From Escherichia coli (GTDB taxonomy: Bacteria > Pseudomonadota > Gammaproteobacteria > Enterobacterales > Enterobacteriaceae), in the NCBI RefSeq assembly GCF_003334255.1, contig NZ_QOWU01000117.1: 3,635 nucleotides of DNA, one strand, 5' to 3'. Made by a program: the position numbers. Below, piece after piece: positions 1 through 3,000 of this stretch (the first letter of the stretch is position 1; each line of letters starts with the position of its first letter).

Positions 1-3000
1 GTGGTCAGGGCATCATCGCCGTCAGACCTCGCAGGAAAACTGACGCAAAAACTGAAGGAAGGCTGGCAACCCTATGGTAGTCCGATTATCTCAAACGCGG
101 GTTATGGTGCTGAATTTATCCAGGCTATAGTCGCTGAAGGGGATATGACCTCTCCGGTAGTTTCACCGGGGGGAGATGGTACCCGGACTGTTGTTGTTGA
201 ACCAGAATATTACTTTGTCATTGCGCTGGCCGGACAGTCAAACGGCATGGCGTATGGTGAAGGCCTGCCGCTGCCGGAGACATATGACCGTCCGGACCCG
301 CGTATTAAACAGCTGGCGCGTCGCAGTACGGTGACACCGGGTGGTGCGGCCTGTGCATATAACGACATCATTCCGGCGGACCACTGCCTGCATGATGTGC
401 AGGATTTGAGCCGTTTTTCTCATCCGAAAGCCAGCGCAGAGCAGTATGGGTGTGTCGGACAGGGATTGCATATTGCCAAAAAGCTGTTGCCCTTTATGCC
501 GGAAAATGCGGGTATTTTGTTAGTGCCGTGCTGTCGTGGTGGCTCTGCGTTTACAGCCGGTGCTGACGGAACGTTCAGTGAAAGTTCAGGAGCGTCGGAT
601 AAATCTGAACGATGGGGCGTTGATAAGCCGTTGTATAAAGACCTGCTGACACGCACTCAGGCCGCGCTGAAGGCAAACCCCAAAAACATACTGCTTTGTG
701 TTGTCTGGATGCAGGGCGAGTTTGATTTAAAACAGGGAGCGTACGCCAGTCAGCCCGCCATGTTTGATGCCATGGTGGAAAAATACCGTTCTGACCTGGC
801 GGGAGTATCCGGTCAGTGCGCTGGTGCTTCTCCTTCTCTGGTGCCCTGGATTTGTGGTGACACGACGTACTACTGGAAGGAGACGTATTCAGCGCAATAC
901 GATGCCGTTTATGGCGCATACAAAACCAAAGCCGGTAAAAATATCTTCTTTGTGCCGTTTATGATGGATGACAATGGTCAGAAAGTCGGGACCAATGAAC
1001 CGTCAGAAGACCCGGATATTCCGGCTATCGGGTATTATGGTTCCGGTGGACGAACGGATGCGAAGAGCTGGACAACATCCGATCGTAAAACCCACTTTGG
1101 TTCATGGGCGCGTCGCGGAATTATTTCCGACCGTCTGGCAACAGCCATTCTTCTGCATGTGGGCAGAGTGGCAGATTTTGTTTCCGGGAAAGTGACAAAA
1201 GCCGCGGTTTCTTCAGGCGGAGGCGTATCGCAACCAGCACAGGAGAGTGGCGATACTCAGCCTGAAGCCGTTGTCCCGACAAAGATACAGTCAGTGCTGG
1301 CTTATGATGTGAATGCGGAAAATGCCGCTCTGGCTTCGCAGGGCTGGACGCTGACAGATGTCAAAAACACGCTGGTCAGTGACAGTGGTTCAGGTAAAAA
1401 AGCCCTTCGTCTTGAAAAACCAGAAAATGGTCTTGCACAGAAAAAGACCTGGAAAGTATCGCACGCAATTGATGCCGGTAAGGGGAAGGAGCTGTTCGAT
1501 AACGGCGGTGAAATCACGCTGCGCTTTAAAATCCCCGATGATGTATCTCTCAATGCTTCTGCAAATCAATATTCTGCGGGTATTTACTGGCGCGGTAGTG
1601 GATGGCCGGGAGCGGAATCAGAGGAGGGTTATATTGCGGCCTTCTATCTGCAGACTGATAAAACAAACATCAATGTGATGTATCATGCAAACACCACATC
1701 ACAGCGGCTTGGTAGTTATGGTCCGTTCGATCACGACTGGCACACGCTGACTTTCCGCTTCCCGGGTGGTGGCTCGCTGAACGTCACGCCGGTGCTTGAT
1801 AATGCAGCAGGAAAACCGTTTACGCTGACCAGATGGACGAATGCAGCCTTTGAGGCCAACGCGCTGGCAATTACGGATATTACCGGAAATGCGGCAACTT
1901 ACCCTGTGCTGATTGAAAGTCTTACTGTTGGTGTGAATGCCGTAGCAGCATAACAGACGAAAAAAAACCGCCAGCAACAGGAATGGAGACTGGCGGAGGT
2001 AATCCCAATGGAGAATCTAACGAAAGGATGCTTTCGACATCAATCATTTCTAAATGAAAACAGTTCTCATTGTCAACAGTAACGGTAATAAACCATGACA
2101 TTCATCAACCAGTTAATGCTGTACTTCTGTACGGTGGTCTGTGTGTTGTATCTTCTTTCAGGTGGATACAGGGCAGTACGCGACTTCTGGCGCAGACAGA
2201 TTGACAAAAGGGCCGCTGAGAAAATCAGCGCCACTCAGTCAGCCGGAGCAAAAACAGAAGCCCCACTCATTCCGGAACAACCTTCTTAATAACCCCTTTC
2301 AACGAGAAAATCCTATGTCAGAAATAAAATCGCTGGTCACTGCTGAGGCAGTGAAGGAAGTCCTGCGCTCTGAAGAAGTCCGGAGCGCACTGAAACAGCA
2401 ACTTCGGCAGAACCTTGAGGCGCGTCTTGATGCAGAAGTGGATTCAATTCTGGATGAATTGCTTGGTGCACAGCCGGAACCATCCCCGGAACTGCTTCCG
2501 GAACCACAGGCGGAAGATGTCACCACGGAAAATGGTGATATTCAGCCGGAGTCACCGGTGACGGATATGACAGACACACAACCCGAACCGGGCACAATGC
2601 TGTAACGGCGGGGCAGGGCCATCAGTAAAACACTGATGGCCTTTTTTATTTCCGGTAGCACAGGTCTGTCGGGGCGGGGATATGTATCAGATGGAAAAAA
2701 TATCAACGGGCATAGCCTATGGTACTTCTGCGGGCAGTGCGGGTTACTGGTTTCTACAGTGGTTGGATCAGGTTACTCCGTCACAGTGGGCTGCTATCGG
2801 GGTTTTGGGGAGCCTGTGTCTGGGGTTCCTGACATACCTGACGAATCTGTATTTCAAAATTAAAGAGGACCGTCGCAAGGCTGCCCGGGGAGAGTGATTA
2901 GGTGACTCAGAAACTCCACTATGGTTTATCGGTAGCCGTTCTGGCGCTGATTGCGGCAGGTGCTTCTGCGCCTGAAATCATCGACCAGTTTCTTGACGAA

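Follow-up and report, generated by a model that had tools for sequence, protein, structure and literature searches.

We propose that positions 1960-2076 of a 3,635-nucleotide (nt) stretch of Escherichia coli DNA (assembly GCF_003334255.1, contig NZ_QOWU01000117.1; the whole stretch is referred to below as the window) probably contain an unannotated minus-strand small RNA (sRNA) gene, which would represent a new allele in the slot of the prophage RNAs PasC and EcOnc52. The list of open reading frames (ORFs) and annotated relatives identify the window as the late part of a lambdoid prophage of E. coli, and the predicted gene is most likely convergent on the gene for a SASA-family carbohydrate esterase and divergent from that for a small membrane protein of the DUF1378 family. 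This kind of RNA is already known in the prophages of pathogenic E. coli, and the sequence version present here is unnamed. The same slot, strand, promoter motif and terminator as in the Pas and EcOnc RNAs, combined with a different RNA body, are what lead us to read the region as a putative new allele of a Pas/EcOnc sRNA cassette.

The reverse complement of the region runs TTGACA-18 nt-TAGAAA-7 nt-AUGU-CGAAAG-CAUC-CUUUCG-UUAGA-UUCUCCAU-UGGGAUUACCU-CCGCCAGU-...-GCUGGCGG-U8 (Table 1), and the RNA predicted from it, of about 81 nt (2040 to 1960), compares with 79 nt for PasC and 85 nt for PasA. Folding of the minus-strand RNA gives a 5′ hairpin, a linker, the terminator hairpin and then U8, with UUCUCCAU placed in some minimum free energy folds in the loop of a weak middle hairpin or partly paired. 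The terminator stem of 7-8 base pairs (bp) includes six G-C pairs and is followed at distance 0 on the minus strand by the U8 tract, as is expected of an intrinsic terminator, and the esterase stop codon (1951-1953) lies just beyond.

Table 1. Positions of the parts of the predicted minus-strand RNA gene and of the other genes in the window.
Feature	Position	Strand	Basis and remarks
-35 hexamer TTGACA (6/6)	2071-2076	-	TTGAC invariant in alignment A1
-10-like hexamer TAGAAA (4/6; no T at position 6)	2047-2052	-	TA[A/G]AA kept across alleles
Predicted transcription start (about A2040)	2039-2042	-	Promoter geometry, 7 nt downstream of the -10-like hexamer
5′ stem-loop CGAAAG-CAUC-CUUUCG (the palindrome)	2021-2036	-	Repeat finder and folding
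Conserved unpaired UUCUCCAU (ATGGAGAA on the plus strand) between the two hairpins; candidate seed, anti-Shine-Dalgarno/anti-AUG	2008-2015	-	Alignments A1 and A2
Terminator hairpin CCGCCAG/CTGGCGG plus a U.G eighth pair; loop 13-15 nt, -12.8 kcal/mol	1968-1996	-	Repeat finder and folding
U8 tract of the terminator, predicted sRNA 3′ end	1960-1967	-	A8 on the plus strand; 7 nt from the esterase stop codon
SASA-family (NanS-p-like) carbohydrate esterase gene	1-1953	+	ORF list; RefSeq/GenBank annotation at matching loci
DUF1378 small membrane-protein gene	2095-2289	+	ORF list; homologue annotation
DUF826-like ORF	2315-2605	+	ORF list
Class II holin gene	2682-2897	+	ORF list
Lysozyme gene	2902-3435	+	ORF list

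An earlier note on this DNA had drawn attention to a hairpin with a run of eight A residues and to a perfect palindrome, both in an AT-rich stretch ahead of the small ORFs, and its description is confirmed by the sequence and by a repeat finder. The inverted repeat CCGCCAG (1968-1974)/CTGGCGG (1990-1996) is 100% complementary with 15 nt between its arms and has A8 (1960-1967) directly on its 5′ side on the plus strand, the palindrome CGAAAG-gatg-CTTTCG (2021-2036) consists of 6+6 bp with a 4-nt loop, and the GC content is 0.41 over 1954-2094 and 0.36 over 1997-2094 compared with 0.51 for the whole window. The chance level was taken from 300 dinucleotide shuffles of the window, which predict about 3.9 perfect 7-bp inverted repeats (loops of 3-20 nt) and about 5.3 perfect 6-bp ones (loops of 3-8 nt) per window. 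Either repeat alone is unremarkable, and the palindrome does not rise above the level expected by chance. A perfect stem of 7 bp with seven or more T residues following no more than 2 nt behind it on the transcribed strand appeared in 1 of the 300 shuffles, so the hairpin together with its run is more than a chance occurrence; the run at 1960-1967 is also the sole homopolymer of at least 7 nt in the window.

The view that the hairpin would terminate only minus-strand transcription is borne out as well, as the T-run lies on the minus strand in every allele and no U-run follows the hairpin on the plus strand, which means that late transcription is not terminated there. That RNA structure matters at 1960-2036 also stands. 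Where we depart from the earlier note is in its treatment of the two elements as separate, since they would be the 3′ and 5′ ends of one predicted minus-strand unit, about 81 nt long and preceded by a conserved -35/-10-like motif, and in its proposal of a regulatory leader for the pair of small ORFs, of which we found no indication. The lack of a sigma-70 promoter had been taken to imply special regulation of these ORFs. They lie, however, within the lambdoid late operon, which is transcribed from pR′ under Q antitermination, and the absence of a promoter of their own is what is expected of genes belonging to that operon.

Alleles for comparison were gathered from 80 IMG/VR loci found via the DUF1378 protein together with phage and E. 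coli records. The collected loci contain 34 distinct intergenic alleles, and megablast and blastn searches against phage genomes gave approximately 300 phage records with homology, mostly from phages converting to Shiga toxin (Stx) 1 or 2. The layout is kept in these approximately 300 Stx-type phages and in some 80 viral contigs even as the loops and the RNA body differ. Carriers of the allele family include VT2-Sakai and Stx2 phage I, and the family is also present in E. coli genomes from human clinical isolates and from wastewater, one of these genomes being labelled ST131. The predicted sRNA is annotated in none of the records examined, and a literature search with the exact VT2-type and window-type allele sequences returned no paper. 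Homology to the Stx-type phages and to the E. coli genomes starts at 1960-1961, the first base of the A-run, and the predicted sRNA terminator marks a recombination boundary. On the other side of it (1-1960) there is a mosaic breakpoint relative to the approximately 300 Stx-type phages, the 3′ part of the esterase gene being a different allele, and the gene upstream of the A-run is variable, either one of several SASA esterase variants or a DUF6645 gene, which is a pseudogene in some E. coli genomes.

All complete alleles contain TTGAC[A/T]-N17/18-TA[A/G]AA on the minus strand, and TTGAC is invariant throughout the 18 sequences of alignment A1 even where the flanks differ; an unaligned variant, L061, has TTAAC instead. 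The stem arms CCGCCAG/CTGGCGG are likewise invariant in all complete alleles and enclose loops of 11 to about 40 nt that are unrelated in sequence, and the T-run that follows has 6-9 residues (mostly 7-9) in every allele, sometimes preceded by one or two C residues. The hairpin arms and the T-run are kept in every allele collected. The palindrome, whose conservation the earlier note had advised checking, is perfect only in window-type alleles and is replaced elsewhere by 5′ hairpins that contain G.U pairs or are entirely different. The most conserved part of the RNA body is UUCUCCAU, which is present, itself or as a near variant, in all complete alleles (alignments A1 and A2), and its plus-strand counterpart ATGGAGAA is conserved in all alleles.

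A 5′ hairpin is present in all complete alleles but is built from different sequences, namely a GAAAG/UUUUC stem that includes a G.U pair in the type commonest in E. coli, a form with a 9-nt loop in P13803-type phages, and an unrelated 9-bp hairpin in the allele L094. G.U pairs are found in the 5′ stem of nine aligned sequences, and U.G pairs in the terminator of two. These would become A.C mismatches in a plus-strand RNA, and they therefore favor the minus-strand transcript as the selected molecule and argue against a DNA operator. RNAalifold offered a pairing of the promoter T-run with GAAAG, which was discarded because its position is upstream of the predicted start. The covariance model R1, built for the family, scores 84-104 bits on the window, VT2-Sakai, the Sakai Sp5 copy and most of the other alleles in its build, 59 bits on the P13803-type copy, 32 bits on L094 (E 8e-5) and 22 bits on another allele, L096 (E 0.015). 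The Sp5 copy, a related allele of the VT2 type, is located at 1272086-1272169(-) of NC_002695.2. In this O157:H7 Sakai prophage (L099 3004-4313) the esterase gene upstream of the allele is split by IS629, and the sRNA cassette and the downstream DUF1378 gene are intact.

The closest experimental counterparts are PasA and PasC of E2348/69, which were validated by northern blot and by the sequencing of ligated RNA interaction partners (RIL-seq) and whose stability depends on Hfq (Pearl Mizrahi 2021, PMC8550237, Table S6). Both are on the minus strand, PasC from 1290909 to 1290832 (79 nt) and PasA from 743499 to 743415 (85 nt) with a minor 3′ end at 743264, and EcOnc51 and EcOnc52 are given in the same table as homologues of PasA in enterohemorrhagic E. 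coli (EHEC). Convergent Hfq-bound sRNAs are known from moron sites of the late region (Tree 2014, PMC4104026), and the direct neighbors of pasA and pasC are the sialic-acid esterase gene on one side and the holin/lysozyme genes on the other (Zhu, Shabalina & Storz 2026, bioRxiv 10.64898/2026.05.13.724894). From the locus sequences, the 3′ end of PasC is 2 nt from the esterase stop and the minor 3′ end of PasA is at the esterase stop. The EcOnc52 peak in Hfq cross-linking and analysis of cDNA (CRAC) starts at the stop of the Sp4 esterase, and a read of EcOnc52 from the sequencing of cross-linked and ligated hybrids (CLASH) ends in ...GCTGGCTCTTTTT.

In a joint alignment of PasA, PasC, EcOnc52, the window and VT2-Sakai, what is common is TTGACA, an A-rich -10-like region and GCCAG...CTGGC with its T-run, and PasC, EcOnc52 and VT2-Sakai further share the terminator GCCAGCGUCC...CGCUGGC with its U-run. 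Over seven alleles the terminator helix is 98% paired, a value reached by 8 of 500 shuffles, and it includes two compensatory pairs, A-U to C-G at the base and G-C to A-U at the top. The window thus has in common with PasA, PasC and EcOnc52 the terminator helix of the Pas family. A PasA/C-like allele (L057-L059) is also located upstream of DUF1378, in the same slot as the allele of the window, and the alleles are therefore interchangeable at this site. In prophage PP2 of E2348/69 (L003 2462-2700, minus strand) there are tandem cassettes, PasA followed by an EcOnc52-like copy adjoining the esterase stop, and read-through of the first terminator to the second accounts for the published 236-nt "minor" PasA species.

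If the region is expressed as proposed, RNA polymerase would start near 2040 at the TTGACA-N18-TAGAAA promoter, the 5′ end of the RNA would be protected by the short stem-loop formed by the palindrome, the conserved single-stranded UUCUCCAU would be exposed next to it, and the 3′ end would be made at the intrinsic terminator, that is, the reverse-oriented hairpin with U8. The product of about 81 nt would have the 3′ hairpin and U-tail that are typical of Hfq-binding sRNAs, and by analogy with PasA, PasC, EcOnc52 and HnrS it may be made in lysogens independently of late transcription and bind Hfq through the U-tail of the terminator. We infer that UUCUCCAU might serve as the seed. It could pair in trans with AUGGAGAA, i.e., with the Shine-Dalgarno (SD)/start region of targets, and/or the RNA could act in cis on the late mRNA between esterase and DUF1378, to which it would be fully complementary. 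RNA duplex predictions for the sRNA against the translation-initiation regions of the window genes gave no outstanding candidate.

Several observations weigh against the existence of such a gene. The loop of the predicted terminator is 13-15 nt compared with the usual 3-8 nt and is not a short loop, although the validated terminators of PasA, PasC and EcOnc52 have similarly large ones, and the -10-like hexamer TAGAAA is without the highly conserved T at position 6. A consensus promoter and terminator scan of the window called neither feature on the minus strand, skipping the terminator because its loop is too large and the promoter because of the missing T. A search of Rfam, including AgvB (RF02702), AsxR (RF02703) and STnc100 (RF02076), gave no match at 1950-2100, and within the close family covariation is absent at the terminator, the arms of which never vary. 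The published surveys count an RNA as Pas if it is matched by BLAST or cmscan with E<0.005 and >75% coverage, and the R1 model falls outside that limit with 13.7 bits on PasC (E ~1), an E of 1.7 on the second PP2 copy and an E of 3.1 on EcOnc52, although in the right place and on the right strand. The allele site in Sakai Sp5 has no listed EcOnc Hfq peak, and the parts of the CRAC/CLASH supplements that were searched (Tree 2014; Waters 2016) contain neither the flanking locus tags nor the allele sequence. Finally, the 151-nt region 1950-2100 folds with a better z-score on the plus strand (-3.3) than on the minus strand (-1.2).

One alternative is that the hairpin and U-run are an orphan insulator, whose sole role is to halt stray antisense transcripts coming out of the lysis region ahead of the esterase/toxin genes, with no dedicated sRNA involved. 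The strict conservation of the terminator above all other parts would fit this, as would a -10-like element that is weak and uncalled by the scan and the missing Hfq peak at the equivalent Sp5 site. We nevertheless consider it unlikely, as an insulator does not account for the conservation of TTGAC and TA.AA at fixed spacing (17-18 nt) some 80 nt upstream or for a 5′ hairpin and UUCUCCAU that are kept across otherwise divergent alleles, and the discrete sRNAs of 79-85 nt that northern blots verified in this slot have homologous terminators at their 3′ ends.

The plus-strand fold leads to a second alternative, which is close to that of the earlier note, in which the region is a leader or intercistronic element of the late mRNA, perhaps with a mini-ORF, that affects the stability or expression of the downstream small ORFs. 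None of 200 shuffles folds as well as the plus strand of 1950-2100, a strong SD sequence (GGAGGT-N7-ATG) opens an ORF of 24 codons (MENLTKGCFRHQSFLNENSSHCQQ, 2008-2082) from the ATG at 2008, and the start of this mini-ORF, ATGGAGAA, is in all alleles. The length of the ORF varies from 4 to 25 codons between alleles with no peptide conserved, however, and the SD is not conserved either, the VT2 type having GGTGGT and the P13803 type GTGAGA in its place. The G.U pairs turn into A.C mismatches on this strand, and the A-run upstream of the hairpin has no known plus-strand role and yet is invariant, with the conserved block ending exactly at it. A conserved plus-strand micropeptide at 2008-2082 was rejected on the variation in length, and the mini-ORF is probably the complement of the conserved sRNA motif rather than a gene. 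Overall, we see little chance that the plus-strand element is what has been selected.

We give similarly little weight, or slightly less, to a decayed remnant, i.e., a former sRNA gene that is no longer expressed and whose conservation reflects not selection but the recent spread of a phage module. In favor of this, most alleles are close relatives of one another and exchange blocks by recombination, but the same architecture recurs in alleles with unalignable bodies (L094, L096, L060 and L057), in which the promoter motif, the 5′ hairpin and the terminator are all intact. Finally, the palindrome CGAAAG-N4-CTTTCG, a perfect 6-4-6 dyad in window-type alleles, might be an operator to which a protein dimer binds, the earlier note having considered regulation by a specific DNA-binding protein. 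We regard such an operator as very improbable, given that 6-bp dyads occur at chance frequency (about five per window), that in most alleles the dyad is lost and the second half-site becomes TTTTCT (CGAAAG..TTTTCT), GTTCCT (CGAAAG..GTTCCT) or a longer insert with the RNA hairpin retained, and that L094 is without the dyad entirely and has a different hairpin there.

With a minus-strand sRNA gene as the preferred interpretation, a broader and considerably more tentative proposal, which we regard as possible but doubtful, is that the junction between the esterase and the lysis genes is a site for swappable sRNA cassettes. These would consist of a constant promoter (TTGACA...TA.AA) and a constant GCCAG/CTGGC terminator with seed bodies exchanged by recombination, and the allele in the window and in most Stx2a phages would be an undescribed regulator whose UUCUCCAU targets ribosome-binding sites or which pairs in cis. 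If this is true, the cassette regulator could tune the DUF1378/lysis module or host genes in lysogens. Host regulation in EHEC and in enteropathogenic E. coli is rewired by prophage sRNAs such as AsxR, AgvB, StxS, HnrS and the Pas RNAs. The predicted sRNA, if expressed, would be a further and widespread regulator, located between the toxin/esterase module and the lysis genes, and would reveal the junction as a recombination-driven sRNA cassette site. For genome annotation, the proposed gene would account for a conserved "backwards terminator" that otherwise looks odd.

The annotation "DUF1378 family protein" of the gene downstream is found under a 100% identical match and likewise in homologues, and in Stx phages the same module is located after stx. 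Between the DUF826-like ORF and the holin gene there is a strong hairpin resembling an intrinsic terminator at 2615-2650 on the plus strand (hairpin 2615-2643), AGGGCCATCAGT...ACTGATGGCCTT followed by TTTTATTT, and E2348/69 PP2 and Sakai Sp10 have similar plus-strand hairpin/T-run elements a short way upstream of their holin genes. The element at 2615-2650 may block non-antiterminated transcription from entering the lysis genes. The N-terminus of the holin, MYQMEK, is encoded with two Met codons that are three codons apart, and a similar two-Met arrangement is seen in dual-start holin/antiholin genes; we assume that this holin closely resembles the pinholin of phage 21. The lysozyme has an N-terminal hydrophobic segment, LSVAVLALIAAGASA, which makes it a candidate for likeness to signal-anchor-release endolysins.

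A second minus-strand small RNA may be encoded at 3502-3635, where a promoter-like TAGTCA-N18-TATACT (3628-3599) is followed by about 75 nt with GUUCUCCCUUGCC and the unit ends at a bidirectional hairpin (3558-3526) with U-runs on both strands. The sole match in an Rfam search of the whole window at E<=1 is a weak one to the rimP leader at 3502-3590(-) with an E of 0.15. The candidate RNA would cover, in antisense, the start codon and SD of the plus-strand ORF at 3592, which in PhiR5_2 encodes a 60-residue protein (MEKYKRILLRL...) with a hydrophobic C-terminal stretch. The start of this ORF downstream of the lysozyme gene reads ATGGAGAA in PhiR5_2 (L002 5742-5749), the perfect complement of UUCUCCAU, and ATGGAAAA in the window (3592-3599), with one mismatch to that complement, which may be either a coincidence or a target site.

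Several known systems resemble the predicted unit. The oop RNA of phage lambda is short and terminated and runs toward the 3′ end of cII, and the window unit would likewise give a short terminated transcript that converges on a gene's 3′ end. Type I antitoxin sRNAs are divergent upstream of small hydrophobic ORFs, as in IstR-1/tisB, OhsC/shoB and OrzO/zorO. The predicted unit is similarly divergent from the DUF1378 small membrane-protein gene and complementary to its upstream mRNA, but DUF1378 is not known to be toxic, PasA and PasC occur without DUF1378 downstream, and the comparison can serve as a lead only.

The anti-sRNAs AgvB and AsxR (Rfam RF02702 and RF02703; Tree 2014, PMC4104026) are also encoded by short genes that converge on the late operon at the moron sites of lambdoid prophages, and the members of their family share the 3′ part and vary in the 5′ part, much as the window alleles do. 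They differ in position, being located between stx/Q and the esterase gene whereas the window unit is after the esterase, and in sequence, and Rfam has no match to them in the window. HnrS (EcOnc10-12), a multicopy prophage sRNA that represses hha (bioRxiv 10.1101/2025.11.27.690950), is similar in that it is short, has an intrinsic terminator, is encoded within the late region on the opposite strand and works through base pairing with a ribosome-binding site. It is located after the Rz gene, some 3-5 kb downstream, and is unrelated in sequence, and HnrS was rejected as the identity of the unit on both location and sequence.

The nearest known RNAs are PasA, PasC and EcOnc51-52. The window has their slot, between a SASA esterase gene and the holin/lysozyme genes; the orientation of its terminator fits the opposite strand, with the predicted U-run close to the esterase stop; its predicted length is within their range of 79-85 nt; and the TTGACA promoter motif is accompanied by the same large-loop GCCAG...CTGGC terminator with a U-run. 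The RNA body, in contrast, is not alignable with that of PasA or PasC, and alignment is limited to the two ends with the promoter and the terminator. The window allele has just part of the PasA seed reported in the terminator arm, GCCAGCACCU, and the 5′ hairpin and UUCUCCAU motif of the window allele are absent from PasA and PasC. PasA-2 (Zhu 2026) was rejected as the identity of the window allele, which is without the PasA 3′ half that PasA-2 carries. The published BLAST/cmscan surveys found Pas RNAs in 43 phage genomes only, compared with approximately 300 for the window allele family, which was therefore not captured by them. Hence we do not claim sequence membership in the Pas family; the window allele agrees with the Pas RNAs in slot, orientation and architecture and at both ends.

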